DNA of 63,233 bases, the filler included, from Nemertoderma westbladi (lineage: Eukaryota > Animalia > Xenacoelomorpha): NCBI GenBank assembly GCA_032718475.1. It is 4 parts of 4 records of this genome, joined end to end, with 100 filler letters (N's around TTAATTAATTAA, not from the genome) between each part and the next. Parts side by side here need not be neighbours in the genome. Positions count along the whole stretch, not along the records: positions 1 to 25,177 come from JAUCBJ010006939.1; 3 more parts are not named here. The stretch is one strand, 5' to 3'. Shown here piece after piece: positions 8,835 through 40,015 of this stretch. The position numbers were made by a program, and so were the translations under genes. Below the pieces are notes generated by a model. The model was not told where the DNA came from. It worked only from the letters and a program-made list of their open reading frames with translations, and did not search any database. How positions within the stretch are numbered: the stretch's first letter is position 1; every line of letters starts with the position of its first letter.

Positions 8835-9669
8835 TTAGATCGTTCTGTCGTTCTGTCGCGTTTTTTTTCAGAATTTTATTTTAAACGTTAATACTGTAGC
8901 TCGGCCAATCCTTGATGAAATCTATCCAGACTTGGTACACATGTTGTTTGGCAAAAGTTTGAAAATTTTCCAAGTAGAATTTGCGTGGGGCCTTCGTGCA
9001 GCATCAGTGTAACTGTTATTGCAGTTATAATAAATTTATTTATCCAAAATTAAAATGCGTTAAATTATTATTACTGTAGGATAAATCAGCTGGGTTTCTG
9101 ACAAATTTTGCAATACATTGGGGCTGTCGGCCAATCTGCATGTACCGGTACTGTTAGGCTGTACTCAATACCTGAATCGAGAATCCTGCAATCAGTCAAT
9201 ACTGCAACACTGGTCAGCCGGTACCATACACTGCAGACATGCCATATCATGTTATGTAATTAAACATGGCCCCGGCAACCCTTGCGGTGATTATAGTTTA
9301 GGCCTAATTAGCCCAGTACCGGTACCGGTAATAATAGCCTAATATAATAGTTTAGATAGTTACCGCTAATCATTCAGTCATTGGCACGGTACACCGTATT
9401 GCTGTACTGCCGTTGTAGTGCGCACCGTAGGTACCACCCTACTACCGGTACCGGCTGACCGGTGGCAACTAGCACTTCAGCACTTGCACAGCAACAGCAC
9501 TACCGGCGATACACAGGTTGGAATTTATGTAGAGTTTGCTCGACAGTAGGCCTACAGATATAAAATAGTTATCTAAATTATATATATTACTATTGACAAG
9601 TATTGAAATATATACCGTTATTCGTGTTATCAGTATTTGCAACATCTGACATTGAAGAGGTGAGAGAAG

Positions 9670-10128
9670 ATGAATACTGGTACTCAACAAAACCAACGCT
9701 TATCACAGGTCGGTATGGTTACCTCGAAACCGGCGCGACTGTCCACTCGAATACAACTTCAAAACACAAACGCCAACAATAAACTGAAAGCGAATCGAAC
9801 GTCTTCAGAATAATCTGTCATTGGGACGAAGAAAAGGAAGCCGAAACCACGGGAATGGACCACAGCTAAGATTGAATGCTCCCATTGTCAGAGTTCCTGG
9901 ACCGAAATTGAAACACCAATTGCCGATGGGCTTGATCTCTCAAACCAAAACTTCCTCTGCGGGGTTTGCGCGGCAGTAAAGATTGAAAGTCTGGAAGCTG
10001 GCATCCCTAGGTATTATTATTATAAAGAGCGTCAGCCTGCGTTTAATAAATATATTTTAATACAAAACAGGTCGAACGCAAAGAGTCTTATAATGATGAC
10101 GAGTACTGCATTGATTGTATTCCTATAA
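9670..10128 (+). pseudogene. Disrupted copy of the CxxC-CxxC ORF
   Basis: Colinear with 13790-14248 but codon 48 GAA>TAA at 9811-9813. Confidence 0.6.
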
Positions 10129-11687
10129 ACCACCTGACTTTGCATATTGAACGTGCGTTTGGAAATAAGTTCGTGCTACCCTTCCGTGGGTGGTAGATGT
10201 CGCGGTTATGTATTGGTGGGTGGGGGGGGGGGGGGGGGGGGGGGGTGCAGATTAAAAGGGGTGAACACGTACTGTCCCCCTTTCTTTGATTAATTGGTGG
10301 TGTGGGTTAATCTCTCATAACCTGATTTTGTGATACAGTCGCACAATTTTAATTTGTATCTCATAACTGGGCCTCGTGCTGCGCGAAGGCCCCACGAACG
10401 TGTACTATAATTATCTTATCACACGGTAAACAAAAGTATAAAGCACAAAGAAATGTATATAGCTATGTACAAAAGATGGCCTAAATGTAATTGTACTTTA
10501 TTATAAATTGAACACACCGTAATATTTAACCAATATTATTACGCCCACCTAGCGTTGATACGCATCTCACGTATCCGGGAGTTACCCAAATTACTAGTCA
10601 CTCTAATCGACTCTAATTTTTAATTTTGGAGTGGCGTAATTAAGTTTCGGTCAAGGAGTAGAATGAAAGCAGTTAATATCAAGGAGCTTGAAAGAGGGGA
10701 AGACTGGGCTAGCAGCGGTGCCCTTGAACATGAAAACTGTTGTACCTGCCTGTTTTAAACCGACTTGCGCGTGGGACCAGCCCATTATTTTAGTAAGGTC
10801 GGTATTTATCTTTATCCCGCCGCTCTCCTTTGTATTACAATAACAGAAAGATAACCAATGGTCTACTCCCAGTGCTGGAAAGACAGGCTGGCACCATTGA
10901 AATGAATTGGCAAAGGCATTTTGTGTTACATCCTAATGTCTGTGTCGTCTTGGCTTGGCTAAGCTTAAACAGAGCCATACAATAGAGCTTTACCTAAATA
11001 CACTTCCAATGAACCGAGCAGTAGCTTGGCGGGTTAGCTCCAAAATGCCCATGTGGGGCGAGCCACGAAGTGAGTGAGCCTTAGCGTAGGGGTACCATTA
11101 ATCAACCTGTCGTTCTGTCGTTCTGTCGCGTTTTTTTTCAGTATTTTATTTTAAACGTTAATAACTCGGCCAATCCTTGATGAAATCTATCCAAACTTGG
11201 TACACATGTTGTTTGGCAAAAGTTTGAAAATTTTCCAAGTAGAATTTGCGTGGGGTCTTCGTGCAGCATCAGTGTAACTGTTATTGCAGTTATAATAAAT
11301 TTATTTACCCAAATTTAAAATGCGTTAAATTATTATTACTGTAGGATAAATCAGCTGGGTGTTGTCTGCATGTACCATGTGTACCGGTACTGTCAGGCTG
11401 TACTCAATCCCTGAATCGAGAATCCTGCAATCCGTCAATACTGCAATACTGGTCAGCCGGTACCATACACTGCAGACATGCCATATCATGTAATCTAATT
11501 AACCCCGGCAACCCTTGCAGTGATTAAAGTTTAGGCCTAATTAGCCCAGTACCGGCACCGGTAATAATAATATAATAGTTTAGATAGTTACCGGTACCGC
11601 TAATCATTCAGTCATTGCTGCATTGGCACGGTACACCGTATTGCTGTACTGCCGTTGTCAGTTGTAGTGCGCACCGTAGGTACCACC

Positions 11688-13556
11688 CATGGCCTACTAC
11701 ACACAGGCCATGATACAAGGACTTTGCTGTGAAATTAGCGTAGGCTGACTGTGCTGATTATCAGATTATGGTACTGTGGTACAAGCTATATACTGTTAGG
11801 TATACTGCTGTATTGGGGTGGGGTTAGGAATAATCCATTTGTTTTAGCATTTAATCCCCTTATTTATTATAAAACCATTGGAAATATTCGCAAATGCCGC
11901 TCCATTCTGCCATTACTGTCTGAAACGCTCCTGACAGTCCGATGTATCTGGACCCGAGCAGCCGAGTTGCTTCAAGAGGTGATTAACGGGGGAATACTAC
12001 GCAGTGCTACGGAATTGCTTGTTTGTCAGTACGATTCTATTTGGGTATTTACTACACTCAGACACTGGGAATACGGCGGTCGGTCAGATCGTAATGCGGG
12101 CCACTGCCAAGTTCCTCATGCCTCACTCCGGTCACCCACCTTGGAGTGCGGTGGGAAGAGTCCCACTTACTGACTTACGTCGACGACTGGACGAATCGAC
12201 GAGGATTGCGATCTGGGTTTAGCGGCGGCCCGGATCCTGGTATCGCCTGGGGGAAATGGTTGAACGTCGGGCATACTTGTATCGCACTGGATTACGTTCT
12301 CTGCGACGTGAAAGTGTGAAGCGAATTCGTTGTCGAATTGGGTCGAAAGCTGCGGGAATTCTACTGTTCTACGGGAGTAAACCGCAGCGGTCCGGTGACT
12401 ACGGACGGATACTACTGGGATAAGCAGGTATTTCGATCGAGTTTCTCGTATTCTCGATGCTCGACAGCTCGAGGCGGATAGAGAGTTGGTTGTGTTGGAC
12501 GGTGTTGTTCAATTATATCAAACGTATTAAATAATTGGTAAAATAATAAAAACACACCAGATAAAGATACTGAGCTTATGGTAAAGAGATAGGCCGAACT
12601 TACAATTTCCAAATAGATTGTTCATATAATAAATATATTTTTGGTATTTGATTTCAAGATAGGGGGGGGGGGGGGGGGGGGGGACTGGACGCAATAAAAA
12701 TTAATCCCTCTCCAGGGGAAATTGGACGCAAATAACAACAGCTGATTACTCTCAAAAATAAAACTGTAACCTGTTCTATTGTGTTTACTTTATTGTTTTG
12801 GTTAAAATAACGTGCCACTGTAACCTGCTCCTTTCCCAAAATTGAGAAATTAATATTGAGGCGGGATATTAATTCGCCAAGATGGGATTTGCGTCCAGTC
12901 CCACCCCCCTCCTATCTCTTGATTTTACTAAAAAATAGAATACATTGCATTTTACTGTTATAATTACTGTATTGAATAAAATAATTAATTTATTGTTTAT
13001 TAAACCGTGCTAAGCACGTTGAACTGGAGCTTTAACAATTCCCCACTAGCGGCAGACAGGAACTGTAAAAGTCTCTGTAGAATTTCTAATTAAGCAATGC
13101 TCTTAGGTAACTACTACTAAATTTCAGATGAATCTGATCGTTGGTTCTATAATTACAGCTATTTTTACGTTTCTGTTAATTCGCCCCCTAGCGGCAGACA
13201 GGGGAACTGTAGAAGTCTGTCTGTGTGTAGAATTTCAAAATTTTTTATAGACTACATGTGTACCAAGTTTGGTTCCATTTCATCCTTGATTGACTGACTT
13301 ATAAGCGTTCAAACATTCCTGCCACAAACATAGCCAGAGGCAGCCACAAACAAATAAAAGCTGCAGGAACTCTAGCGATAATTAATTAATTAATTATTAA
13401 ATACTGTTTCAATTAAATTACTTACGAAAATCTAGTCATCTTCTTTTAAATATGGACCCTGCATTCGTGGAAAATATAATATTTGATAATTCAGCAGTCA
13501 GCCTACGCTAATTTCACAGCAAAGTCCTTGTCATGGCCTGTGTGTAGTAGGCCATG
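11688..13556. mobile_element. Non-autonomous P-element-like (or hAT) transposon
   Basis: ~65-75-bp TIR catggcctactacacacaggccatg...; perfect 8-bp TSD GTACCACC (11680-11687, 13557-13564); the empty site is visible in copy 1 at ~9430. Confidence 0.85.
12655..12920. mobile_element. MITE (family also at ~32100-32310 in the opposite orientation)
   Basis: TIR agatagggg..gactggacgcaa / ttgcgtccagtc..cctatct; body matches the reverse complement of 32100-32310. Confidence 0.7.
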
Positions 13557-13789
13557 GTACCACCCTACTACCGGTACCGGCTGACCGGTGGCAACTAGCA
13601 CTTCAGCACTTGCACAGCAACAGCACTACCGGCGATACACAGGTTGGAATTTATGTAGAGTTTGCTCAACAGTACAGATATAAAATAGTTATCTAAATTA
13701 TATATATTACTATTGACAAGTATTGAAATATATACCGTTATTCGTGTTATCAGTATTTGCAACATCTGACATTGAAGAGGTGAGAGAAG

Positions 13790-14248
13790 ATGAATACCGG
13801 CACTCAACAAAACCAACGCTTATCACAGGTCGGTATGGTTACCTCGAAACCGGCGCGACTGTCCACTCGAATACAACTTCAAAACACAAACGCCAACAAT
13901 AAACTGAAAGCGAATCGAACGTCTTCAGAAGAATCTGTCATTGGGACGAAGAAAAGGAAGCCGAAACCACGGGAATGGACCACAGCTAAGATTGAATGCT
14001 CCCATTGTCAGAGTTCCTGGACCGAAATTGAAACACCAATTGCCGATGGGCTTGATCTCTCAAACCAAAACTTCCTCTGCGGGGTTTGCGTGGCAGTAAA
14101 GATTGAAAGTCTGGAAGCTGGCATCCCTAGGTATTATTATTATAAAGAGCGTCAGCCTGCGTTTAATAAATATATTTTAATACAAAACAGGTCGAACGCA
14201 AAGAGGCTTATAATGAAGACGAGTACTGCATTGATTATATTCCTATAA
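13790..14248 (+). CDS. 152-aa ORF with basic NLS-like patch and CxxC...CxxC (partial PHD-like), resembling a LINE ORF1 N-terminus carried in the element
   Basis: KKRKPKPR, CSHC...CGVC followed by KIESLE; expression unproven. Confidence 0.35.
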   Translation: MNTGTQQNQRLSQVGMVTSKPARLSTRIQLQNTNANNKLKANRTSSEESVIGTKKRKPKPREWTTAKIECSHCQSSWTEIETPIADGLDLSNQNFLCGVCVAVKIESLEAGIPRYYYYKERQPAFNKYILIQNRSNAKRLIMKTSTALIIFL

Positions 14249-15245
14249 ACCACCTGGCTTTGCATATTGAACGTGCGTTTGGAAATAAGTTCGTGCTACC
14301 CTTCCGTGGGTGGTAGATGTCGCGGTTATGTATTGGTGGGTGGGAAGGGAGGGGGGGGGGGGTGCAGATTAAAAGGGGTGAACACGTACTGTCCCCCTTT
14401 CTTTGATTAATTGGTGGTGTGGGTTAATCTCTCATAACCTGATTTTGTGATACAGTCGCACAATTTTAATTTGTATCTCATAACTGGGCCTCGTGCTGCG
14501 CGAAGGCCCCACGAACGTGTAGGATTTCTTCGAAAAAGGCCCAATTTTTTTAGTTACGAGTTACATTAAAATACTGATAAATATATTTTGCTTTGCGCGG
14601 AGGAGAGACAGTCCCTCTTCTATAGTGTACAATCGTGTTAATTATAAGCTTTTGGTTTATTTCTATGTATTTGGTTTATCAACAAGTTTGGATATGTTCT
14701 GTTCTGTTCTAATTTTGTTTTTGTCTCGTCAATTAATTGTGTGGTTAATTTGTCAATCGCGGCCTTAATTGGCTACATTGCCTCTGTATGAATGAATGTA
14801 ATTAGTTATTAACCCTTTGCTGCTCAGTGTTGTTCCGGAACAACATTCCTATTATTGGCTCTCCTAATCTCAGAATGGTAATATGTTAAATCCGATTGGT
14901 TGATATGGGTTGTCAACATGTTTCTTGTACCTGAGGATCAGTTTCCTTTGCTTCCCGGAGGGAAATTTGAACATTGGCTTACATATTGTGAGCCTATGCT
15001 TCAATAAGCGGTAATTGAAAAAACATGTGCATTCATATTATTAAAAAAGACAATTCCCTTTAATTTTTCCGTTCCAAAAAAATCGAGTAGATAGGAAAAT
15101 ATGTCTAAGATGATTTTCGAATGCTCCAATAGATTGTTAATAGATTTTAACCAAGTGAGTAGTGTTTTAAAGATTGTTGTCCCCCAACAACATTGCCCAT
15201 TTAAGAAAGCTATAATTACATTGTAGTTTTTATTTCACACTTTCA

Positions 15246-15514
15246 CAGGCACTTTCACAAGAATGCTGCGCAGAGTTCATTCTGTCAAGTACAATGAACA
15301 CATCTCCAACCAAACTCTATACAGCATTGGGGGTGTTCCATTAATCTTCACTAACTTGACACTTGAACGGAACCGCCTCCGCTTTGCAGAACATTGCTTT
15401 CGCCGTAATGACCAGCCAGTGCATAACCGTGTGCTTTGGCGCTCTCATGGAGCGAATAAGTGTGGACAGCCCATGACTTTCTTGAGACACATCGCGGCCT
15501 TGAAGATGCAGATG
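15246..15514 (+). mobile_element. RTE-clade LINE 3' fragment
   Basis: MLRRVH..YNEHISN..LY...RLRFAEHCFRR, homologous to 59270-59550; cut by the LTR starting at 15515. Confidence 0.8.
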
Positions 15515-16181
15515 TGTCACGGCTTTCGGCGTCCTTACCCCCTCAAAAAACGTAAAAAATATCTTATATATTTCATTCATTATCATTATCTTCATTAACA
15601 TTCAAATTTCCCGCCAACACTAATAATCTGATACATTCTTCACTCTGTCACCTATAAATACTGGACGTACTGCTATTTCATTCATTCATTCATTCATTCT
15701 GATGAATAGAATCACACGGACATCAGACTTTCTGCTCTGTGTCCACCAGCTACTGACTGCTGGACTGCATCTGTCAGTAGCTACTTTATCCTTTATCTGT
15801 TTCTAGCAGTCTCTTAGACACCCGTCTATGCGCCTGTATAAACGCCAGTATTTCTTTTGAACTGTGCGTGTGCGTTCCATTTTCATCACTACACTGCATG
15901 ATTATTGTCATCCCTTTTTGGCTCATATCGCATTTAGTGACATGCCTGATTTAGGAAATAAATAAACGGAAGGTTTTATAATAAAGAATATTTATTTTAG
16001 AGGCCATTGGCAATTAACGTTTACATGCTCAGGTGATGAAATTACGCCAAGCGCGCCAGCACGGTAGAATACGGGCTGACGGGCGTTAGTATTACAGCCG
16101 CCAAATGAAGGTTTTACCGGCAAAGCCTCATAAAATAACCAAAAGCGACCCAAACCGCTTTCCCACTGTTTAGCCGGGACA
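15515..16181 (+). mobile_element. 5' LTR of BEL/Pao element 1
   Basis: Starts exactly where RTE homology stops; TG...CA with terminal IR TGTCACGGCT / AGCCGGGACA; TATAAATA at 15653 and AATAAA cluster at ~15957-15984; colinear with gag once two insertions are removed. Confidence 0.75.
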
Positions 16182-16239
16182 GTTTTGTTCAAAAGAAATA
16201 ATTATAAATTTCTAAATCATTTTTTTTATTAATAACGTA

Positions 16240-17680
16240 CAGTTAGGTACAATGGCCAAATCTGGCAATGATTGTGATTGCCATATTTGGCAACCAAGCA
16301 AAATCTGGCAACATTTCTGATTGCCTGATTTGGCAACTATATAAAGCCGTTGTTGCCATATTTGGCAACTTAACTATGAACTAACTCATTGAATATGGAT
16401 TATATGGTTCTGCGTCCTTCTATCTGTCTATGGCAGTATGGTCATTCCTTAGATCCTGAAATGTTAATGTTAGGCCTAGAAAAAAGGCAAAGGGGTAGGG
16501 CCAGGTTACATGTTATACTTATACCAGTCAGCCAGTAGTGCCATATTCTAAGTTCTAACCAATACAACAATATATCCTAATAAATGAGGTGAGAATGAGA
16601 GTCAATAACACAAACACAGACTGACTGGTGATAGTTTTTTTGCTTTTTTGACATTTTTGTTAGTAATCTCTGGCGCTGCTTTGGGAGGTGGTTGATTGTT
16701 GTTTGTACCAATATTAGTTTAGTAGTTAAAGATTGTAACTGTGTAATGCTGATACAATTGCCCAGCAATCTAAATCATCCTTCACTCTATACCAGTATAC
16801 TGCTATATCAGTTCAGTATATCTATCTTTCCATTCCTACATCAGTACATACACACATATAATGAAAATAATTTCATCCCGTTTTTCATTAGCTGATTAGG
16901 GCCTACTAGAAACAATTTGTTGAATCCCTTAACCTGCCTGTTAACACGCGTTTTGGTTTTCTCAGTCTTTCTAAATTTTGGCACTATTTTTCTTCCATCA
17001 CGCTGTTTCTCAAACTTTAATGCCCCCTTGCCTTCTTGCTGCCTTTTGGTGATGATAACGTTCTGACGTTGTCAAATATTATTACGTTTATTTCCATTTC
17101 AGCCTTTGAAGCATGTGATTCTTTAGATTTGTTTATGCCTATACCATAGGGCCTATATACCAGTCTACCAGTACTGTATATGTTACAGACTCATCCATCT
17201 GTCCATTAACATATTAACAACAACATATCAAATAGGCCTACATTCTGATATTTCATCAACTAATAATGTTTATAAATCATCACAACTCGACAAGGGTAAG
17301 CAAGCAGTAAGCAATTTTGAAGTAATTTACAATGACAGGGTTACTGACAGGCAGACAGGGCTGCACAATAATAATTGTTGCCAAAAATGGCAACCATTTG
17401 CCATTATTTTTCTTTAATTCTAATGGTTGCCAAAAATGGCAATAATTATTTTAGGCACATTTCGGCCTATTGCTAAGAGAAATTCAGACGATGATTTTTT
17501 TTCTTATACGGTCAATTATATTTAAATTTCGCGCTCTTTTCACTTAACTATATACCAAAATGCGATTTTGCTTCTGGGCGTGCGAAAATTAGAAAAACCA
17601 AAAGTTGCCAGATTTGGCAATAAACATTGCCATATGTGGCAACTTTTGAGGTTGCCAGATTTGGCCATTGTACCTAACTG
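16240..17680. mobile_element. Non-autonomous DNA transposon with 5-bp TSD, superfamily unassigned
   Basis: 29-bp TIR cagttaggtacaatggccaaatctggcaa; TSD ACGTA (16235-16239, 17681-17685); subterminal ttgcca..tggcaa repeats. Confidence 0.85.
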
Positions 17681-17774
17681 ACGTATCGGTATTAAAAAAG
17701 AAATACTGCGCTTTACTGCTGTCTGGCTGAAGCCGTACTGACTGCAATTTATGCTTATTGCACATGCACATAGG

Positions 17775-20700
17775 CCCTATTGAAAAGTTTTATTTTCTGC
17801 GCCGAACGCAGCGCCGGGTGCCAAAAATCCTGCGCCGGCTCTGAGCAAAACCACGCCGGGTGCCAAAAATCCTGCGCCGGCGCTGAGCAAAACCACGCCG
17901 GATGCAAAAAATCCTGCGCCGGCTCGGTGTAAAACCACGCCGGGTGCAAAAATCATGCGTTGGCTCTGTGCAATGCAAAATGCTGCGCCGGGTGAAAAAT
18001 CTTCCGCCGGATCTTCAAAGCTGCACCGGGCTGACTGGTATAAGACATAAAATGTTAAATCTGGCTGTTATACTGTACAGTACGTGTAGTTTATTCTGTT
18101 TATCTATTATACTGCAGCTGCATATAGTACTGTATGTAATTTATAAAATATGTATGACGTATGTAATGAAACATATCCCGCCCCCATGACCGCCTCCCCC
18201 CACCCCCTGTCTTGAGTTGATGGTACCTAGAAGAGACATGTACTGTATTCATTTAAATACTGCATGATATCGTATTGTATTCGAATTCGACAAACTTATG
18301 TTCGTTCCATAACAAGTAATAATATGATACCAAAATAAAAGTATGGGGAAGGATTTGGATATTTGAATATATTAAACTTTATATGGTTTTAATAATTATT
18401 ATTTTTGCATGTTAAACTAAATCATCAGGTACAGCGTGCCATTAAGAAGTATTCATGGTATTAGGTATTGGCATTTGTTTGTAAAGTAGCTTTAAAAAAG
18501 TAAAGGAAATTGTGCTAATCCTAGTTGTTACATTATATTATATTAAAGTTGTGATGTGTATATGTTATATCTGTATATTAAAGACTACTAGTCTACTAGT
18601 ACTCTTAGTCCTTGTATTTATGTACTACTGCTACTGTACGTTCTACTTTACTACATACTACGTAGTGTGGTCCGGTATACGTCTATGCTACAGATACCGA
18701 GATACGGTATGTCTGAATGAATAATGACTAGCTAGCTGTATGTTATGTTATTATTTATTAATATCGCCAGAATAACAATAAAATATTAATTTTTGCACAT
18801 GTACGTACACGTACAGCAGATTAAAATAAAATGAACACATATCTGGCAAAGTACGCCAATAAGCGTATGTACTATTGTAAGAAAAATACGGATAATGGTA
18901 TTCAGGTAAAATTAGTAAAATAATTAAAATTATAGTTTATTTACAGTACTTACAGTTGGTGCATATTAATTATTTAAAAAAATTATTACAGTAAAATTAA
19001 ATTAAAAACCGGCAAAGCATACTTAGGTTCAAGTGCTTTAACAACATACAGTACTAAAGGCAAACATACAGACATATTAATAAGGGACAAGTTTACAATA
19101 CGTTTACAACACAAAAATACGTAGTATTTTCTCACGTATATTCTCACGGAACATAAATTTGGTACCGTAGGTATGTCGCATAAGTAAAATATTACTGCTG
19201 AAATAAAACGCGTAAAATAAAGTAACTACTGTACAAAAGTTAGGACAACAATTAAACATAAAAAAACACTATTTTAAAATTGAACACAAAAAAATGTTTT
19301 TTGGGATTGAAAAAATGAAAACAATAGGTACTGTAGCTAGATTTTGATGAAGATATCGTTGTATCCGAAAGATATCCAAAAGATATCGCTTTCGCTACTG
19401 CCACTTGGCGCACAGGAGTATCACTTCACTACATATTAATTTTAAGGGACATTTCGCAGTCTAGTCTATTTTTGAATGTGTTCGCAAGCATGGAGTACCA
19501 AGGGTATTACGTGCATTTACAACACTTTCCGGTAATGGTAAAGGATTCCAAATGTTTACAACGCTGTCTGCAAAGTTGTTGCATCTCCTTTGAGTCCTAC
19601 AGTTCGATCTTTTGTACAGCAGTACAGCGCCAAGGAAGCCTCGTGTTGAGCATTGGTGGAGTTTGGAGCGAAACTGCTGAACTGGAAGAAATTACTGGGC
19701 TCAATTTTGTCAATCCCGTTGATAAACTTTTATGTTGTTAAAAGGTCGGCTAGTACATGGCGATATATTGATGTCTGTAGTTTGAGTGCCCGTAGTCGGT
19801 TTTCATATGACAACTCAGCCAGCGATAGTACAACTGTACAAGGCGAGTGGCACGGTGTTGTACTTGTTCAAGCAGTCAAGACGATCAATATATATCATGT
19901 TGGAGATACGGCGACCAAACAACTGTGTCGAATTCAAAGAGAGGCCGAACAAGGGATTTGTATAACAGGGTCAGAAGGTAAACATAGGAGCTTCCAAATA
20001 TGTGAAAGTTATATTAAATGGACGAATCGCATGGCACGGGCTGCAGTATTTGTGCAGTGAGTTGTGAAGGACAAGTCTGGTGTAAATGAAATTCCAAAAT
20101 CACGTTCCTCGTTTGCCGAAAAAAGTGTACGTCCATTCATTGTGTAAAGTTCAGAAGTTGCTTGGGGATTTCTAGTTAAACTAGATGCATGACCTTCTGA
20201 CCTTGCACTTGGAGTCATTGAACTGCAATTTCCAATGGTTACACCATTCCACTAGCGTCTAGATCAGCCGGTCAGCCAGTAAGGCCTGTGTGTCAGTAAT
20301 AAATTGTTTCATTATTAATAGTGCCATAGTATAACTGTATAAGTCGTTTTGTTTTATTCACTGTACAACTTTATCCTGTTTTATTATGTGCAGTTTTATT
20401 TATACGCTTCTATTCTGCTATTGTCTATGACAGCGGTGTCTCCATCCAAATAATATAATATACTGTAATATAAATATAGCTTATACAATACAGCATGTAA
20501 ATAAATAAACTGACTGACCAATAGCAATAATGACTGATGAGCTGATAGCTGGAACTGTGATAGCCTACCTGCCTACTTCCTAACAGCATACTGGCATAAG
20601 GTTAAATACGTAAATAAATGACCAGTTTCAGTCAGCCAGTGTGAGTTTCCATTCTGCCTCATGCATGGCCAGTTGTTATTGTGTTGCTGTGCCAGTGTGC

Positions 20701-21061
20701 TGTTGGTCTGATGAACGCATGTCTGTTGTCGTGCTGTCTCAGTCTCACTGTCTGCCTGGTGCTAGGTTCGGCTGATTTCTGCGCCAGGCAAATATGTACG
20801 CCGGGTGTGCTGGGCTGATTCCTGCTCCGGCGCCGGGTCAATTTCTGCAGCGTCGACGCCGGGAATATTTCGACGCCTGCTGCGCCGAGCGCAGCATCTC
20901 TACCATTGCCAGTGCTCCGCCGGCTACGCCGGCGTAGCACATCTCTGCGCCGACCCTTCCGGCTCATTGCCCGGCGTAGCACATTTCTGCGCCAGCTCCC
21001 GGCGCAAGTTCTAGTGCTGCGCCGAACGTGCTCGGCGTACATGTAAAACTTTTCAATAGGG
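17775..21061. mobile_element. Non-autonomous DNA transposon with 8-bp TSD (Zisupton/KDZ-like)
   Basis: TIR ccctattgaaaagtttta; TSD CACATAGG (17767-17774, 21062-21069); ctgcgccgg subterminal arrays at both ends. Confidence 0.8.
19440..20280 (-). mobile_element. CR1/L2-group LINE reverse transcriptase C-terminal fragment, decayed
   Basis: Minus-strand frames give ERDFGISFTPDLSF..H and LYKSLVRPLFEFDTVVWSPY; frameshifted; boundaries approximate. Confidence 0.8.
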
Positions 21062-21348
21062 CACATAGGCCTGGGCCTATGCTTTTTTATGTTCTCCTTC
21101 ACAAGCCCTAACGCCTCTGCCAGTCTGCCAGTCTGTTACCACCTTACCGCCTGCTGACATTGCAGCATTCAGGCATTGACAGTAGGTTCAGTAAATTAGT
21201 CCTAGAGTAGGCTGTCTGGTAGCAGCAGCAGTGGTAGTGGTAGGTAGGCAATAGGCAGATAGGCTACTGCTGCACGTTAGGCCAACAGGCCTGCGTATAT
21301 CGTGGTATTTACGGACGCGGGCGCGTCTATATCTAACAGTCTAACATC

Positions 21349-24300
21349 ATGGATGAAACTCTGGTCAATCCGAACATTTCGGACGGTTCGGAAAACGGTA
21401 TCATCGACGACAGCCAAGCCTATCATGATCCGGATCCGGCGAGTATAGGTGTAAGTACAACCGACCATCTCCAGCTCCACTCCACTGCCATTAACATTCA
21501 CTCTGACAATGACGACAGTAGACCGACAAACCCAACAGGTAGCGGTAGGCAAAGAAATCCTGTAGTTAGGCCTACCTCCGACAATGTACCGGTACGCCAA
21601 AGGGTTTCTGCTACCGGTGTGCCTACTTCCGGTACCGGTGGGCCTACTTCCGGTACCGGTGGGCCTACTTCCGGTACCGGTGGGCCTACTTCCGGTACCG
21701 GTGGGCCTACTTCCGGTAATACAAATCCTTATTCTGTTTCTCAGAATGCGTTTGAATCTACCCAATTACCATTACAGCCTAGTAGACATAGAACACGTAA
21801 GCATTCTATGGCTGATAGTGTACATTCAAACGGTTCTCTTGTATCTTCTACAGCTACCCAGAGTTATAACAGGCTTAAGCAAGAACATGCAATTGCTAAA
21901 CTAGAGGCCAAACAAAATATAAGACGTGCTGAATTAGAGGCCAAAGACAAATTAGATTTATCTAAATTAAAATTGGAACAAGCCGAGCAGGAAATGGCTG
22001 AACGAGATCTAGTAGACTTCAAAGAGAAACCTGCAATTCCAAGCCCCTTTATTCAGCCGGCGGGGCTTAAAACTGAAAACAATTTTTCAGCAATTAATAC
22101 TGGCCCCAGCATGCCTAATATAATGTTTAATCCCGCTTCTACCCCCTGTTTATCACCAATTCTGCCACTGCCAAGTTTAGCTATTAGTAATAGGCCTATT
22201 ATAGTTGGTAAGCATACTGATATTAATACCCCTGTAACTGTAGTGCCTACACCTTATTTTACACAGCAATCTATATATAGCCTTCCTAGCCTTAGTAACG
22301 CTTATAGTACTAGGATTGTCCCTAATGTAGATAGTTATCCTAGACCTAGTGTTAATAATAGTAATACCAGTAGCAATATGTCAATTACAACACCGTTGAC
22401 TACTGAATTATTATCTAGTTACCATATCAATCATAATGTAGGTCGTGGCAACCACTCTCATCCATCCAACCCAATAAGTGGATACAATTCTTTCTCAGGC
22501 CAGCCTACTGGGGATATAGGTATTTATAGTATGTCCCCACATATCGCCATGGGGGGACCTTCTCAGCCAAATCATCCCTTCCATAGTCAAGGGGGCTATG
22601 GATGTCCTTCTACCGGTCTTCCTCCCAGTGGTAGCAGTTATATCAATCCAAATTTATCAAACATAAATTCTTCCTCTGTTGATGGTATATTTTCAAAGAC
22701 TCTTGATACTTTGGACAAACTTAACACTAAGCTTTCTCTTCCACCTCCTCAACCAAAGTCTTTTGATGGCAATCCTGCCAACTATATTTCTTTCTTGGCA
22801 ACTTTCAGAGCTCAGATAGATTCCAAACCTCTTGATGAATATGATAAGTTGAATTATCTCTTGCAGTATACCACAGGCAAGGCTCATACCCTTATTGAAA
22901 TGTATAGTGGTCTTCCTAACGGATACTCCAGTGCTTGGATGGCCCTTCATAACAGATATGGCCACCCTAGTGTCATTATCCAAACTATTCTTGATAAACT
23001 TACTGTCAAGACAGATTTAGGTGGATCAGCAACCCAGCGTAGAGAACGACTCCGTAATTATGCTGATAATATTATGTCTAATATTGCAGTTCTTCAGCAA
23101 CTATCAGATAGCAATGAGATGAACTCTTCAGCCAATCTCAAACAAGTTGCATCCAATCTCCCACCAGACATCCATCGTAGGTGGTGCCGCCATGCTCGTA
23201 GTTATCGACGCTCCCATGGTAACCATGAACCTACCCTCCAAGTACTAGCAGCATTCGTAGATGAAGAAGCAGAGGTCATCAATGACCCTGTGTATGTTCC
23301 CCATAGTTCACACTCGTCCACATACTCGTCTACTTCTACTGCACAAAATCAACCAAGTCAAAGGTCGCTAGCACCTACTGAACCAAAACCTAAGGTCACT
23401 ACCCTTAATATAGATACCATAAAAACATGCACAAGGAAATGCATGAAGTGTAATGGTTTAGATCATGGTATTTCTTCATGTCCAGAATATCTTGAATTAT
23501 CTCTTGCTGACAGAAAGAAAGTTGTTCAGGATAAGAAATTGTGTTATAATTGTCTTTATTATGACCATAACCCTTCAACTTGTACCTCTAAATACCATTG
23601 TAGGACTCCTGGATGTTCCAAACGACACCATACAAGCCTTCATAATCCTGATGCTGCAAAGACAAAGTCCAACAATTCTTCTTCAAGTTCTATGAATAAG
23701 AATAGCACTACTTCAAAGGAAACTAGCAAATCACCTGCTAAGAAAATCACTACAGATTCAAACTTTGTACAAGGATCTATAGCATCAGAAGAATCAGAAC
23801 AGGTTGGCATGTCATCCATTGTTGACTCTGAGGTCCTTTTTTCGAAACAGACCCCTTCTGTCTGGCTTTCGGTTGTTCCAATTAGGCTTTCTTTCGACAA
23901 GGAAAGTGTTTCTACATTTGCCTTATTGGATGACGGTTCTACTTCATCTTTCATTGACAAATCTGTCATTGACCATGTTGGTATAATCCCACGTCAAACA
24001 TCATTACGATTGAGTACATTGTTAGATATTGATAAACCTGTCTCAGTCGGGGAGGTATCATGTTCAGTAACTCCTGTTCCTGGCAAGTTAGATACTGATC
24101 CAAACTTAGTTATGAGGTTCGACAAGGTCTATGTAACTTCAAATATTAAGCGTGAATTTCTTCATGACAGCAAGCACATTGACCTGCAAACTTTTCCTCA
24201 TCCTTTCCCCCTCTCTTTGGAATTTTCTCATCCCAAAGTGGACATTCCATCCATCACTGTCCTCATAGGTGCAAATTACCCCCAGGCTTTGTTTCGCGAT

Positions 24301-25177
24301 AAGCATAAGTGGCCTGAACATCCTAACTCAGAACCTTCTGCTATCCATACTCCCTTTGGTTGGTGTGTAATTGGCCCTGTGGGAAATGTTTCCCATCTTC
24401 CCAGTGTTAGTGTCCATCACATAGTTGCAAAGGAAACAACTCTACTCAGTAAGGAACTGGAACTACAACTTAATCAATTCTTAGGACTAGATAAATTCGG
24501 TACAACTACTCCATCTGATTTTCTTATGGAAAATGATGAAGACAAAGCTTATTCTAGGGACGAACTCAAAGCACTACAGATGCTCAAAGAATCAACCAAA
24601 CTTATTGATCATCGCTACCAAATCGGAATGCTTTGGAAGCAATATCCCCCTAAGCTTGTCAATAATTACCCCTTAGCTATGTCCTGTGTTCTTAGTCTTT
24701 TGAAACGATTAAAGGATAAGCCTGGCAAATATCAGCTTTATCAGGACAATATTGACCAGTACATTTCTAAGGGGATTGCTCGTAAACTTACAGAAGATGA
24801 TATTCCTGCTGGTCCTCAAACATTCTATCTTCCCCATCATTTCGTTGAAAATGTTAACAAACCAGGACATATTCGAATTGTTAATGATGGCTCTGCTCTA
24901 TACAAAGGTGTTTCTTTAAATAATCAACTCATGGATGGTCCCAGCCTTTGTTGTTCCATAGTCGGGGTATTATTGCGATTTCGTATTGGTGCTATTGCTT
25001 TCATCGCAGACATAGAAAGCATGTTCCATCAGGTGAAGGTCACACCACAAGATTCTGACAGCCTGCGGTTTCTTTGGCAATCTCCAGGTGCCAGTACTAT
25101 TGATACTTATGCAATGTTGGTGCACATTTTTGGTGCTCGTTGCTCTTCATGCACTGCAACTTATGGTGTTAGACGTT
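21349..25177 (+). CDS. BEL/Pao gag-pol polyprotein (Gag, zinc knuckles, aspartic protease, RT N-half), truncated by assembly gap
   Basis: FDGNPANY...KLNYLLQY Gag core; CxxC..H..C knuckles and HHTSLH; ALLDDGS protease; YLPHH, RIVNDGS, ADIESMFHQV RT motifs; open for >1270 codons. Confidence 0.95.
21611..21717 (+). repeat. 21-bp in-frame tandem repeat (PTSGTGG x~5) in gag
   Basis: cctacttccggtaccggtggg units. Confidence 0.9.
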
Positions 25178-25345
25178 NNNNNNNNNNNNNNNNNNNNNNN
25201 NNNNNNNNNNNNNNNNNNNNNTTAATTAATTAANNNNNNNNNNNNNNNNNNNNNNNNNNNNNNNNNNNNNNNNNNNNAAACTGTATTTAATGCCTACACT
25301 TGCAACCTTATTGCCTACTGCAATAAGATAATTATAAACTGTTAC

Positions 25346-26508
25346 TGTTCGCGCTTTTGAAGACCTTTAGCAGTTTAACCTGCCAAATTTTATATGTCTT
25401 TTAGTTAATTAAAACCACTTTAGCATACGACAATAATTTATGCTAATACGCAAAACATTAGCCGAAATCAGCCCATGCGCGATCATTCACCCGATGGATC
25501 TACACCCGGGAGACTGAATTCGGATGCTTGAATTGTATTATTACAGTGTAAGGTTGCAGTGTATACCTAATGTATTATTCGATAGATCGTTAATAATTAA
25601 TCTCTGACAGATATTATTGGCTTTCGGGAAATATTAACAGTTCCTTTAGGACGTGGCGCTTTATCTATTTAAACAGAACTAAGACTTATACTAAAACGCA
25701 ACGATACTGCTTATGATTAAAGTATAAAGCGTATTCTTTAGGAAATACTTTGTTACCAATCACAATCATACACACTATTCTGCCGACAGTCAGTATATTT
25801 GATCACACATAAAGAGAGCAGTAATTGACTCACGTAGGGTCTGCTAAATAACATTGGATTCAATACACACCACATTAATATAAATCGCAATTGTTATGTA
25901 TAGCCGGTCTCTCTAACCTGTAGTGTTATCAAGAAAATTGGGAATTGGGTGATTTATCCGTATTATCCAAATAGCAATATTTCCATCAACAAATATTTAC
26001 AATTGATAACTGACGGTAAAATAACAGTACAAGCAATATGATTAATGCAAAAGTATCAAGATTAGTTAATGAGTATGATTATCAAGTTAAATTAGTTCGG
26101 TAACAGTTTATACTTTCGATAATTCAAGCAGTTTACGGTACAGCAGTATCTATCCAAAAATGCCGGTGTTTCTGGCTTAGACAGCAATAACAACAAAGTA
26201 TCAAGAAAAAACAGTAAGACTGAACACTCTCCTTATGATCGGCAGAAAAGCTACACGTCGACAGGAAAAACCGCCCTGATTGGCCCAAGCCAAACAAAGA
26301 ACCACGCGTCCAATGGCTGTTTCCATGTCAGCAACCAGCTGCTAGATGTCGTAATATGAATCATCACGGCTAAGCTGTGAAAGGTGGTTGGTGCATTACA
26401 AGTTTTTTGTCTTACCATGTCCACTAAAACACGTATATAGCAGAATTACTTTTATGTCCGTTAAAACCCCTGTAAAGGTACCTTGCGGGCGAGGGGAATA
26501 TATATACA
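25346..26508 (-). mobile_element. 5' LTR of a further BEL element related to element 2; body lost in the gap
   Basis: Shares the terminus tgttcgcgctttt..gacctttagcagtttaacctgccaa with 33517 and 46362, and internal similarity of ~25780-26115 to 33568-33905; right boundary approximate. Confidence 0.7.
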
Positions 26509-30177: not shown

Positions 30178-31572
30178 TTAATTCAGATCGACCACATTTA
30201 ACGCCTCTAAAGTTTCCTCAGCGTCTTCGTTATCATCTGGGAGGGAACTCAGATCGATTGTGGGAATAATCTTTGGCATATCCACCCGTTTCTGACGTCC
30301 TTGAGCGCTTTTATGCCGCTGACAGTAGTTACTCTTACACGATTTGGTGAAAATCTCCTGACAGAACTCCCCGTGGGAAATCTCGAACAGACAGCGCCGG
30401 TACCGGGTTGGGTCGTTGGGGTACCGGAGGTGCGGCGTCCGCCGTGTTCGGACACCGGACGTCCGGGCGGTTTGCACCTTCTTACTGGACGCCCGTACAA
30501 CCTGCACTACTCCCTTGTTACGCGGCTCCACTCGCGGAGAACTTTCCGGCGAAGTTTTACCAAGCTTCACGATTTTTATTTTGCGTTTTGTAGATTTTTT
30601 ATTAGTTTGCTTAGGTTTACTAGAACTCAATATTCTTCTAGAAGTTTCTTTTTGAGATTCTCGAATATTTATAACACTTGCAGATTCTCTTAATTCGTCT
30701 GCGGTAACTTCATCACGAGATGACGATAAACTAACAATAATTTTTGGCGACTTTGTCGCTGATTTATAGAAAGGCCCCGCCCCTCTGATACCGGTACCGG
30801 TACCAGCCTTAGCCACGCTCGATTTTAATGAAGTTGAATTAGTTTGACTTAAATTCGATTTAATTTGGGTTTTATTTTTAGAAAAGTCATATAAATCGCG
30901 GTCCCCACAAGGAACGTTTACTCGAGAGTCCAATAACGAGTTATCCTCATCGGCTTCTATCCAATTACTAGACGCGAAATTAATTGTATCGAGTTGCCCT
31001 GCGAACAATGAATCGAGTCCAGACGTCTCCGGAACAACTTCGAACTCTGTGTTCGATTGGTTTAGAGTCGACAGGTTGCTCTCTGATGTACTACTGCATG
31101 CGTTGTTGTTGTCTGTAGTAGCCAAGGCACCACTCCGTTTCGCAGAATCTTCGTTGAGTATCAGTTGATCTAACAAACAGACTTTATGCACCATTACAGA
31201 CATCAACCTCGCTTTGCACCGGTTGAATTCACTCCTGAAACACTCTTGATCGAAAAGCAACAATTTCATTTTTCTCCTGAGTGTGTGGTAGTTTTGCAGT
31301 GTAGTGAGTTTATCAGGACTTTTATTCGAACCATCTTTTCGTTTCGCTGTCCGAATTCTGAATCTCTTTAAACGCAAACTTTTACTTCGCTTCTTCGTTT
31401 TGGGTTTGTCCACCCGCACATTGGATTTTCTCTTCGTGATCAACTCTGCGCCGTCGCTGTTACATACCGGTACCGGTACTTCGTAATGAGTTTCTGGAGT
31501 CACATTGTCGACATGCGCAGTAATTATGTTACTGACATCATTAGTGTTAGTGGGTACCGGTACATTATCCAT
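30178..31572 (-). CDS. Intronless 464-aa basic protein with INO80E-like coiled coil and C-terminal C3H zinc finger
   Basis: Uninterrupted ATG-to-stop ORF in stop-rich surroundings; aa ~94-141 YHTLRRKMKLLLFDQECFRSEF..RL....K..LLDQL...E resembles the INO80E N-terminal helix; C-terminal CLFEISHGEFC...SNYCQRH. Confidence 0.75.
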   Translation of the reverse strand: MDNVPVPTNTNDVSNIITAHVDNVTPETHYEVPVPVCNSDGAELITKRKSNVRVDKPKTKKRSKSLRLKRFRIRTAKRKDGSNKSPDKLTTLQNYHTLRRKMKLLLFDQECFRSEFNRCKARLMSVMVHKVCLLDQLILNEDSAKRSGALATTDNNNACSSTSESNLSTLNQSNTEFEVVPETSGLDSLFAGQLDTINFASSNWIEADEDNSLLDSRVNVPCGDRDLYDFSKNKTQIKSNLSQTNSTSLKSSVAKAGTGTGIRGAGPFYKSATKSPKIIVSLSSSRDEVTADELRESASVINIRESQKETSRRILSSSKPKQTNKKSTKRKIKIVKLGKTSPESSPRVEPRNKGVVQVVRASSKKVQTARTSGVRTRRTPHLRYPNDPTRYRRCLFEISHGEFCQEIFTKSCKSNYCQRHKSAQGRQKRVDMPKIIPTIDLSSLPDDNEDAEETLEALNVVDLN

Positions 31573-31879
31573 TTCAGCATTTAGGCCCTATCTCCTGATA
31601 TCTGTACCACCGGTTTGATTGATTTTTTCCATATATAAATATATACTGTACTGAATATATACACAATACTGAATACGGTATAGGCATACATAAATCACAA
31701 TTTACCGTTTCAACGTATGCCTTACGTATCCACGTTCTATACATTACATTGGGCGATTTGACATACGCGTAGTCGAATACTGTTTCCTGATTGGTCCAGA
31801 TGAGATACGAGAGAAATTTCATGCAAAACGCTTAGGCCTCCGTTAAATTAGATTTGACACAGAGAGCCCATGGGACCGG

Positions 31880-33137: not shown

Positions 33138-36100
33138 GTTCTCCGCCCGGTCAATATTTACGATATCTGGATATGACAACAATGTTAAGAAGCGCCCGCA
33201 GGCGCGTATTTGATTCAACGTCGTCAGAAGGAAATCCGAAGGCGAAAATCTTTCCAAGGTTCGGTTCCTCGAGAGTGGCGTATTTTCGATCTGTAGTACT
33301 GTAGTAGGCCTAGCCGATACAGCACTATTTATGAGGCATTATAATTTTATTATAAATCAGCATACGCTACTAGTACTATAAAAGTACACCATGTCCCGTA
33401 ATATAGTGTCATTTTCTGATGACACGGACCCCCCCCCCAGATTTTTCTACAAATCTTTATCATATTGCTTGAAATTTGAAATACAACTAGTTCCACTCAC
33501 CGTTGATGACCCCATGTGTTCGCGCTTTTAGACCTTTAGCAGTTTAACCTGCCAATTTAATCCAACCCTGCCGTCACTGATTTTGATCATATATAAGGAA
33601 GATTGCAACTGACACACGTAGGGATTATGAAATAGCATTTAATTCACACAAAACCACTATAATTTGAGTCACAGTTGCTACCGGTAGACCCTTCCTCTGC
33701 TTACCTCAGTAATCAAGAAAGTTGAGGGGTTTACGATTATTTGTCGGTATTCTCCAAATATAACATCCATTAATATAAACAGCAATTAACACAATATAAA
33801 ACAGCATTAAAACAGTAGTGCGGTGAACAGTCAGTAGGTGTTCATGAAGTGTAGTTTGGTGGTATATTGAGTTTGGTTTGGTGATTCAGGTTAATAGATT
33901 TACGTTCTTATAACTAAGGCCATCAGATGTTCTTGGGCCAAAGTCTGAAACGTCCATACTTAGTACAGAATTCTGAGAGGAATCTAATTCTCAGAAAAAC
34001 GATATCGTTGCGTTTCGAACACAATTCCAGGTTTCTTAAAGTTAAATCGCATGACGACGAGTTCTACCGATCGCACTAAACCATCATCGGATATATGAGT
34101 CTCGATGATACGATTTGTCTGCCACCTCTTACGGGGAAGATCTGATTCCATGATAAGGACCATGTCTCCGGCGCTGACGTTTTCTTGCTGCGCAAACCAC
34201 TTTGTTCGAAGTTGTAGCGTAGGAAGATAATGTTTTTCGAAATGGTCAGCGAAACGACGGGATAATAACTGCATAAGTTGCCAAGTTTGTCGGCAGTATT
34301 CGTCTCCATCTGTTATTTCCGATTGCGGGAGCATGGCTACAGGTTTCTTTAGTAGGAAATGCGTGGGTGTTAGCGCTTCTAGGGAGTCGGGACTCGATGA
34401 GACTGGCATAAGCGGTCTCTCGTTGAGATAGGCGGTGTTTTCTTCCATTAACGTCCGCAAAAGTTCGTCGGTGGGATACGCGCGGCATGGAACTATAAAG
34501 TGAAATGTGGTCTTTACGCTATGTATGAGTCTCTCCCAACTTCCTCCCCACCAAGGGGCGTCGGCGGCGTTGAAGGTCCAGCTAGATGCTGTTACTCTTA
34601 GCTGATCGTCCACCTGTCTTTGGTTCCAATCCTTTACGTAAGCTTTAATCTCGTTATTGGCGCCTATGAAATTAGTTCCTTTGTCAGATCTCAGAGTGTT
34701 GCTAGTCCCAAAATGAGCGATTTGTCGGCGTAAACTCAGTATGAAGCTGTTGGTAGATAGATCGTTCAACATATCTAGATGAATCGCTCTACAAGTCATA
34801 CAGACAAAGATGACGCACAATCGCTTGACTATAGCCCTAGCACGGTATACTTCAATAGGGCCAAATAAATCCACACCAGTATTAGTAAAGGGTGGTTCAT
34901 AACAGCTTACTCGTTCCCTAGGTAATTCTGCCTCTCGCTGTGTTAAAGGCCTACTAAATGATTTCCTACAGGGTATACAGTTCCTAAGAACTTGGTTTAG
35001 AGCTCTACGGGGCTTATTGAAATAATAGCGAGTTCTAATTTCGCTAAGAACTCGTTCTTTACTAGCGTGGTAAAGCTTACTGTGAACATCTACAATCATC
35101 TTGATTTGTATTTCAAGATTTCTAATGAGTATGGGAAACCTAGTGTCAAAGGACAATGGAGCTTTGGTTAATCTCCCTCCGACAAGTATTAACCCATCTA
35201 TAATTGTGCTAGAGAAACGATCCCTTAAGCGCATCTGTGGATTTCTTAACAACAGGAAATATCGTATCGGAATCCTCGTAACATTGAAGGAGTCTCAGTA
35301 TCTGCTTGTTGGTCTCATCATGTTCTTGGTAACTGATCTTCTCAGTCAGAAACCTATCAGGCAGTCTATAAGTGGGAAGGTCTTTAGTAGCATGGACCTT
35401 TTCAGCCACTACTGGAGCAGTATCATTAGCGATCTTCGTCCTGGAATAGTGATGATGGAAACATCTTTTCAAATACACAAGGGCTTTGCAAAGCCGATTC
35501 CAGGAGCTATAATGATCTATCGCCCTTTGTAGGAGAGGAGAGAGTCCTTGGGAGACATCTGGTGTTCCAGATTTCCAGTCTCTTTCTCTGATTTCTATAA
35601 CGGATTTATTTATAGTTCGAGTAGCATCCATGGAAGAATTTAGATCCACAGTGGCGTCACCGGCGGTGTGTAGCACAGACAGATCTATCGCTGGCTTAAA
35701 CAGCTTTGATTTACTCGTCCGGGTTTTCGGTTTGACTTTCTCCGCTCCCTTGGCTTGTCTGATTTCCGCTGTGGTGAGATGAGGGGGCCATTCCTCCTCT
35801 TCTTTACATAGGAAGTCGGGTCCACCTAATCAGTCTGGAGTATCTATCAATTCTTGAGGAGTTGCTCCTCTGGAAGCGATGTCAGCTGGATTAATCGTCC
35901 CAGGGGAATGTCTCCATTGATCTATATTAGACCGACTGAGTATAATGGCTACTCTGTTGGTAACAAAGACACTGAACTGACAGACTTCATTAGTTATAGA
36001 CTCCAGAACGAGTAAAGCATAAGACCAATAGACAGTTTTCTCTAGTGGATAGTCGATCTGTTCCGTTACATTCTGGCCGATGATGGCTGTAGTGTATAGA

Positions 36101-38549: not shown

Positions 38550-40015
38550 CCTAGTAACAGGTTTTTCACTTACCTTACTTTCCGGAGTCTTCTCTCTAGA
38601 CTGTTTTATGAGCTGTAAACTTACCTCTCTGTTTAAGAATGACAGAAGGTCCGCCATGGTTGGGTCTCTATGTTGTTGGTCCATCAGATAGAGAACCTTT
38701 TTGTCCCAGCGAGTACCTACTCCACCCTTTGGGAAAGTTGATGCTACGGCTCCGACAACCATAGAACTCTGGTATTCCTGAGACTTACCCAACCAGTCTA
38801 GCTGTCTACAGATCTCCTGAATCTCATTGGAAAACTCTATAATCCCTCTGCTAGGAAACTTTCGGGGCGCTACTAATTTCGCATACAGATATCTAGCTAT
38901 GTTCGTCCTATTACCATACCTGATATTAAGTGTATCCCAAACTTGTCTCAATCTGTCTGGATGTCCAATAAACTTTAACGCCATTAACTTGTCAGATCCT
39001 TCCAAGCACTCGATGAGGAATCTAAGTTTCTCTCCGTTAGATAGCACAGAGTTCTGTATGTTATCTGTATGCTTTCGCCGTCGTCTGTATAACACACTGG
39101 TATTACCTTTCTCCTAGAAACGGGTTTCTCACCTTATTTTCCGGTGTCACAGAACTCTGGTATTCCTGAGACTTACCCAACCAGTCTAGCTGTCTACAGA
39201 TCTCATGAATCTCATTGGAAAACTCTATAATCCCTCTGCTAAGAAACGTTCGGGGCGCTACTAATTTCGCATACAGATATCTAGCTATGTTAGTCCTATT
39301 ACCATACCTGATATTAAGTGTATCCCAAACTTGTCTCAATCTGTCTGGATGTCCAATAAACTTTAACGCCATTAACTTGTCAGATCCTTCCAAGCACTCG
39401 ATGAGGAATCTAAGTTTCTCTCCGTTAGATAGCACAGAGTTCTGTATGTTATCTGTATACTTTCGCCGTCGTCTGTATAACACACTGGTATTACCTTTCT
39501 CCTAGAAACGGGTTTCTCACCTTATTTTCCGGTGTCTTCTCTCTGGACTGCTTTAGGAGCTGTAATTTTACCTCTCCATCTAAGAATGAAATGAGATCAG
39601 CCATGGTAGGGTCTCTTCGTTGTTGTTCCATCATATATAACACTTTCTTGTCCCAGCGTGTACCTACTCCACCCTTGGGCAAAGTAGATGCTAAGGCTCC
39701 TACAACCATAGAATTCTGGTATTCATGAGACTTACCTAACCAATCTAGTTGTCTACAGATCTCCTGAATCTCGTCGGAAAACTCTATAATCCCGCTGCTA
39801 AGAAACTTTCGGGGCGCCATTAATTTCGCATATAAATACCTAGCTATGTTAGTCCTATTACCATACCTGATGTTTAGTGTATCCCAAACTTGTCTTAATC
39901 CATCTGGATGTCCAATAAACTTTAACGCCATTAACTTGGGAGATCCTTCCAAGCACTCGATGAGGAATCTAAGTTTCTCTCCGTTAGATAGCACATAGTT
40001 CTGTATGTTATCTTT
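38550..40015 (-). repeat. Tandem triplication of the Gag core segment
   Basis: DNIQN.VLSNGEKLRFLIECLEGS..LMALKFIGHPD.LRQVWDTLNIRYGN occurs in ORFs 39491-40378, 39103-39483 and 38139-39095; 388-bp offset between the last two. Confidence 0.9.

Follow-up and report, generated by a model that had tools for sequence, protein, structure and literature searches.

In LTR retrotransposons, tRNA primers are copied during plus-strand synthesis, and the 3′ end of a primer must sit at the end of the long terminal repeat (LTR) or a few bases from it. Cer7 of Caenorhabditis elegans encodes its own tRNA-like primer, and the Tf1 primer too is copied into the plus strand. The passages of PMC7175516 cited here establish the self-priming mechanism of Tf1 and state that plus-strand synthesis ends in primer-binding site (PBS) sequence; self-priming is described for the Tf1/sushi group (Tf1 and Tf2 of Schizosaccharomyces pombe, Tj1 and Tosmo1-3) in the cited parts of PMC7175516, PMC4600332 and PMC10085805. 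For plants, the cited part of PMC6317226 predicts it in Tcn1 (Ty3/gypsy) and TAR/Houba/Osr-1 (Ty1/copia), on the criterion of a complement to the 5′ LTR, 10 nt or longer, that starts 0–5 nt after the LTR. The fungal Copia element GalEa, according to the cited portion of PMC5445492, has no tRNA PBS and carries a Conserved Hairpin Site shortly after the 5′ LTR. BEL/Pao elements (Belpaoviridae/Semotivirus) are described by the ICTV as having LTRs of 0.2–1.2 kb, a gag-pol in the order PR-RT-RH-IN and a PPT, and as primed by host tRNA at an 18-nt PBS for tRNA-Arg or tRNA-Gly; their replication is called poorly understood (PMC8742986). A literature search, covering mostly sources other than subscription journals, Repbase reports, GyDB pages and supplements, returned no report of BEL/Pao self-priming. 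The main text of two BEL surveys (PMC3118150, PMC554778) mentions neither a PBS nor a tRNA, and BEL self-priming does not appear in the parts covered of PMC3601003, PMC6934838, PMC8220671 and PMC5445492; the one passage of PMC3601003 that has the term 'self-priming' lies outside these parts.

We analysed a window of 63,233 nt of Nemertoderma westbladi DNA (GCA_032718475.1), the whole stretch being four joined parts, of which positions 1–25,177 come from JAUCBJ010006939.1. It contains three elements, E1 on the plus strand and E2 and E3 on the minus strand, in which the sequence at the PBS position is an exact complement of part of the element's own LTR. Elsewhere in the window, long uninterrupted frames at 52709–54100 (plus strand) and 30178–31587 (minus strand) correspond to the N-terminal part of prolyl 4-hydroxylase alpha and to an INO80E-domain protein, and the blocks at 8840–10404, 11110–11766 and 13481–14521 are recent duplications of 87–98% identity, with one inverted junction.

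In E1, the 14 nt at the PBS position (16187–16200, plus strand) are the exact reverse complement of 15849–15862 (plus strand) inside the LTR, the predicted self-primer segment. This agrees with the initial annotation, as does the lack of a TGG after the LTR (none in 16182–16239); TGG is likewise absent after the LTRs of E2 and E3. Each E1 14-mer is single-copy in the window, and the spacer between the LTR end and the match is 5 nt (16182–16186), the longest among the strong cases described below. When the LTR of each element was dinucleotide-shuffled 5,000 times and matches were accepted at offsets of 0–6 nt, none of the 5,000 E1 shuffles reached 14 nt (maximum 13, mean 6.2). The E1 leader holds a second site, 13 nt at 17696–17708 (plus strand), that is an exact complement of 15846–15858. 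It extends 3 nt further upstream in the LTR segment than the PBS match does, with 20 nt matching at 85%. This second site may serve as an alternative partner, derive from aberrant copying of the primer, or have arisen by chance. The E2 leader, scanned for a second complementary site of this kind, gave at most 9 nt.

The putative 5′ LTR of E1 spans 667 nt (15515–16181, plus strand), runs from TG to CA and has a 10-nt terminal inverted repeat. On its left it interrupts an apparent non-LTR retrotransposon fragment (15248–15514, plus strand) that is 83% identical to 59272–59520; in local alignment, homology to this second copy (59272–59551), which lies near an endonuclease frame, stops at 15514. 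On its right, 9 of the 10 nt of the inverted first 10 nt are matched at 16181, the only position 200–1,500 nt downstream that closes a 10-nt inverted repeat with two mismatches or fewer. Because the left homology break and the right inverted repeat are both independent of the PBS match, the two edges hold, and the LTR end that had been placed at 16181 is upheld. No target-site duplication lies to the right of the LTR, and 15515–16181 is therefore not a solo LTR. The E1 3′ LTR is absent from the assembly, which has a gap at 25178.

A gag-pol frame (21349–25177, plus strand) starts 5.2 kb downstream of the LTR; it encodes DUF1759, zinc knuckles, a protease and the start of RT, and ends within RT at the assembly gap. 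The intervening leader contains two nested DNA-transposon-like insertions, one at 16240–17680 with a perfect 29-nt TIR and a 5-bp TSD and the other at 17775–21061 with a perfect 18-nt TIR and an 8-bp TSD. Subtracting both leaves 426 nt. The second insertion includes, by eye, an apparent reverse-strand non-LTR retrotransposon fragment near 19400–20250, and a third non-autonomous DNA-transposon-like insertion (43021–44211) lies in the E2 leader. For E1 alone, the LTR at 15515–16181 could have come from another element. The 21349 gag-pol would then once have carried a different, tRNA-primed LTR near 21217, since lost, and only E2, E3 and the relatives would attest to the self-pairing trait. Such an origin would fit the missing 3′ LTR and a 9-nt TGG-starting motif at 21217–21225, the same nine letters that open the tRNA-type sites in two relatives, L007 and L017, the former among E1's nearer relatives. 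That motif, however, lies within a CAG-rich run with no LTR-end CA beside it, both insertions retain intact TSDs, and the 426-nt leader resembles the leader of about 430 nt in another relative, L039. We regard a foreign LTR as quite unlikely, and the E1 LTR likely belongs to the 21349 gag-pol.

E2 shows both of its LTR 3′ ends, whereas E1 has its one LTR and E3 is represented by an LTR only. Of the E2 5′ LTR, a 3′ remnant is present (46362–46493, minus strand) and the rest falls in an assembly gap; the remnant and the 3′ LTR share their end motif, beyond which the flanking sequences diverge. The 3′ LTR (33517–33929, minus strand, 5′ edge approximate) is about 380 nt shorter internally than that of E3, and is preceded by a tract that we label PPT-like (33930–33942, minus strand). 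The coding region (33987–42618, minus strand) is broken, encodes gag, protease, RT-RNase H and an integrase with DUF5641 in this order, and is colinear with two full-length homologues (P0004 and P0005), giving the order PR-RT-RH-IN. Tandem duplications of 388–947 nt in the E2 gag, at 38500–40000 of the window, have produced two DUF1759-bearing frames. At the E2 PBS position, 11 nt with no spacer (46351–46361, minus strand) are the exact complement of 33891–33901 (minus strand), the predicted self-primer segment in the 3′ LTR copy. The E3 LTR (25346–26112, minus strand) has its 3′ end at 25346, 26112 being the extent noted and not necessarily the 5′ start; the internal part of E3 runs into a gap. 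The LTR is followed without a spacer by 13 nt (25333–25345, minus strand) that are the exact complement of 26100–26112 (minus strand), its predicted self-primer segment.

The LTRs of E2 and E3 are homologous. Their alignment, in which the self-primer segments are in register, has 222 identities in 377 columns and scores 247, where 200 shuffles went no higher than 151. The PBS-position sequences of the two elements differ at 4 of 11 positions, and all four differences are compensated in the LTR. Cross-pairs among E1, E2 and E3 reach just 5–7 nt. Could such matches arise by chance where A and T abound, or from isolated inversions of the DNA? The sequences are indeed A/T-rich, the finding was selected post hoc, and shuffles reached the observed length in 14 of 5,000 cases for E2 and 6 of 5,000 for E3, so that E2 alone gives p ~0.003. 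Against this, all three LTR ends in the window that have a following leader show the self-match, and the differences between E2 and E3 are compensated at homologous sites. The relatives described below bear further on this explanation, which we consider very improbable and which is largely refuted by their match matrix.

The proteins place these elements in BEL/Pao. E1 and E2 have a DUF1759 gag (E values of 1.4e-13 and 6.3e-12, respectively, in a domain search), with zinc knuckles in E1, and a pol related to Pao-type proteins. Homologues of the E1 frame are Pao-type polyproteins with 28–40% identity; among those listed, most carry PF05380 and PF03564 and many also PF18701, and the named hosts include cnidarians, tunicates, crustaceans, echinoderms, nematodes, moths and one fish. 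Domain searches of the window elements and the listed homologues gave no chromodomain match. E3 may be assigned to BEL solely through the homology of its LTR to that of E2. Of the features in the ICTV description, E2 shows the PR-RT-RH-IN order and a PPT-like tract, and the LTRs, as far as they are assembled, would fit the size range; the window elements depart from the description in having no TGG site. Because membership rests on proteins, and the PBS is a described trait, we file E1–E3 as BEL/Pao elements with a variant primer site. They resemble the Tf1/sushi group, as far as the cited passages describe it, in lacking a tRNA site and in carrying, at the PBS position, a short complement (about 11 nt in that group) of their own LTR RNA. 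That group, however, consists of Ty3/gypsy chromoviruses; with their BEL/Pao proteins, the window elements would work like it without being members. All three also fall within the DNA criterion used for plant Tcn1/TAR, as given in the cited part of PMC6317226. Those plant lineages belong to other superfamilies, and the same part describes no splice-junction form of the kind seen in relatives of E1.

Such relatives came from a metagenome scan with the E1 RT stretch, which returned 79 loci in 34 identity groups. The three window elements and 15 non-redundant metagenome elements with a delimitable LTR and leader were compared in a match matrix, the other 64 loci being left out. An own-LTR match of at least 11 nt was found in 11 of the 18 elements, a count inflated by the way the LTR end was set in six of the seven splice-type cases, where it was picked visually or came from the scan; among the 8 elements whose LTR end had been placed without recourse to the match, 5 reached this length. 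None of 304 non-cognate PBS/LTR pairs did so (maximum 10 nt); these controls leave out both pairings inside the L003/L023 family, which in one case had given 11 nt. LTR-versus-LTR local-alignment scores scale with length and were disregarded. Seven of the 18 elements fall below 11 nt. An automatic scan of 37 loci, run without a null control, gave a top match of at least 11 nt in 13; at least four of these (L024, L035, L048 and L055) look like background, and the scan served only to pick L025 and L029.

Four of the strong matches are contiguous (E1, E2, E3 and L039). The other seven, of 11–18 nt, bridge a GT-AG junction predicted within the LTR (L011, 847–1218; L014; L025; L029; L040, 1729–2311; L046, 2523–3337; and L050, 122–461), with predicted introns of 82–426 nt. 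Junction-spanning matches do not easily arise from a DNA-level inversion and therefore point to an RNA partner; together with the empty control set, they argue further against chance. The same arrangement was tried and rejected for the window elements, where the best junctions gave 0, 0 and 8 nt for E1, E2 and E3, below the contiguous match. Spacers in the 11 strong cases are 0–5 nt and loops 74–754 nt. Ten of the 11 strong PBSs start with GT, which suggests a constrained primer end. Two elements, L007 and L017, keep TGG sites, which we take to be of the initiator-Met type, and have own-LTR scores of 4 and 5 nt; five others (L003, L019, L023, L055 and L075) score 7–9 nt. Four of these five, L003, L019, L023 and L075, form a related group in which the PBS-position sequence starts with AT rather than GT. 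For L023, the site has an 11-nt match to the junction of a family member, L002; the 9 nt of L075 are obtained with GC as the donor.

In a tree of 57 rows, rooted at the midpoint and containing no named references from the Pao, Sinbad, Dan, Flow, Tas, BEL or Suzu lineages (24 loci with matches below 150 aa were dropped), E1 and E2 are long branches without a resolved placement, and the poorly resolved clade that holds E1 also contains the TGG-type L007 family. Families with self-pairing are scattered through the tree, and the trait recurs in distant relatives; we claim neither a single origin nor a direction of change. Searches found no tRNA in the window or in 24 of the 79 relative loci, and no Rfam match in the window.

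In principle, the pairing might instead be a structural switch acting in translation, packaging or dimerization, with a tRNA or tRNA fragment priming at an unrecognised site. The second leader site of E1 could serve such a switch as an alternative partner. Hairpins also follow the PBS positions of E2 (46322–46342, minus strand, z −2.3) and E3 (25308–25326, minus strand, z −2.9); the two are related, and a conserved hairpin soon after the 5′ LTR is reminiscent of the PBS-less GalEa as characterized in the cited portion of PMC5445492. GalEa, by that same account, has no LTR sequence complementary to its site, whereas the window elements do. A switch also sits poorly with the match starting 0–5 nt from the LTR end in 11 of 11 strong cases, where the 3′ end of a primer must be, and with PBS letters that vary across families while TGG-type relatives show no pairing. 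We therefore hold a structural switch to be rather unlikely, and favour a role of the paired segment in priming.

If the LTR segment is a primer, its place in the transcript matters for the comparison with Tf1. A motif scan of the E1 LTR identified a TATA box at 15653 and initiator-like repeats at 15678–15699 (together 15653–15699, plus strand), with a predicted start at about 15680–15684, and three poly(A) signals (15957–15985, plus strand) that mark the predicted R/U5 border. The TATA box at 15653 is the only one in this LTR with a correctly spaced initiator-like repeat. A start near 15847, as the initial annotation had suggested, is disfavoured because the nearest TATA, at 15837, is too near, only 10 nt upstream. 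The favoured start would lie about 165 nt upstream of the self-primer segment. The E1 primer segment is thus likely internal to the RNA, in contrast to the Tf1 primer, which in the cited account is the first 11 nt of the RNA. Relatives lead to a similar view: because the paired segment spans a predicted exon–exon junction in seven of them, which is a further departure from the Tf1/sushi group, it is probably internal.

Predicted folding of the native E1 RNA from either candidate start gave pair probabilities of 0.75–1.0 for the duplex. For unspliced E3, pairing over the 754-nt loop had a predicted probability of 0. The E2 and E3 LTRs (minus strand) both have a donor-like site (E3, 25831–25839; E2, 33615–33623) and, about 35 nt before the LTR end, an acceptor-like site (E3, 25379–25387; E2, 33546–33555); an intron at the E3 sites would cut the loop to about 300 nt, like that of E1. 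We also looked for the flanking duplexes of Tf1 and found exact complements of 3–8 nt only, the same range as in unrelated LTRs, with G-U and gapped helices outside the score; by this exact-match test the three-duplex 'pretzel' of Tf1, as drawn in the cited passages, is not found here.

These folding results raise the question of whether the element's RNA might prime in trans, with a separate short LTR-derived RNA annealing to the PBS and the genomic RNA left uncut. Candidates would be a processed LTR-only transcript, for which the poly(A) signals inside the E1 LTR offer a possible source, or a sense small RNA ending at the 3′ edge of the segment. Priming in trans fits all of the complementarity and covariation data, and both the long E3 loop, which disfavours folding in cis, and the missing flanking duplexes are in keeping with it. 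Yet E1 folds in cis with high predicted probability, the loops of the ten strong cases besides E3 measure 74–374 nt, and we know of no precedent for priming in trans by a short LTR-derived RNA. We judge it unlikely.

Taken on sequence grounds, it is probable that the BEL/Pao elements in this window use a segment of their own LTR RNA as the primer for the minus DNA strand. Priming from the element's own RNA had been put forward by the initial annotation, and this part of the proposal appears stronger for the compensated differences between E2 and E3 and the matches in relatives; what found no support is a Tf1-like primer at the 5′ end of the transcript. In E1, transcription from about 15680–15684 would leave the segment inside the RNA, where it would fold back to pair with the PBS, closing a loop of about 320 nt. 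Cleavage at the 3′ edge of the segment (15862/15863), for which the element's RNase H is the probable agent by analogy with Tf1, would free a 3′-OH. RT would then extend through the spacer, U5 and R as far as the cut, and the resulting DNA would jump to the 3′ R; this strong-stop DNA would span 15863–16186, overlapping the predicted R region. During plus-strand synthesis the primer would be copied, such that the PBS would be rewritten from the LTR segment in each cycle. This proposed rewriting would explain why the match is exact and covaries despite divergence. In several relatives, this primer would come together only once an intron had been spliced from the LTR.

A wider reading is that a broad BEL/Pao branch swapped tRNA priming for an internal self-primer whose terminal dinucleotide is conserved. 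Host splicing of an LTR intron would, in many of the families, build this primer and act as a checkpoint for reverse transcription; the window elements would represent an intron-independent form, and the interspersed tRNA-primed families would indicate repeated switching. We see the case for and against this wider reading as evenly balanced. BEL/Pao is one of the three superfamilies of LTR retrotransposons. If self-priming holds here, it would be extended to the third superfamily and with a different layout, the primer being internal and, in some families, built by splicing. For E1 it would make exact predictions: the RNA would be cut at 15862/15863, and strong-stop DNA would begin at 16186. 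It would also account for BEL elements said by annotation tools to have no PBS, and this BEL branch may escape host control exerted through tRNA supply or tRNA fragments.
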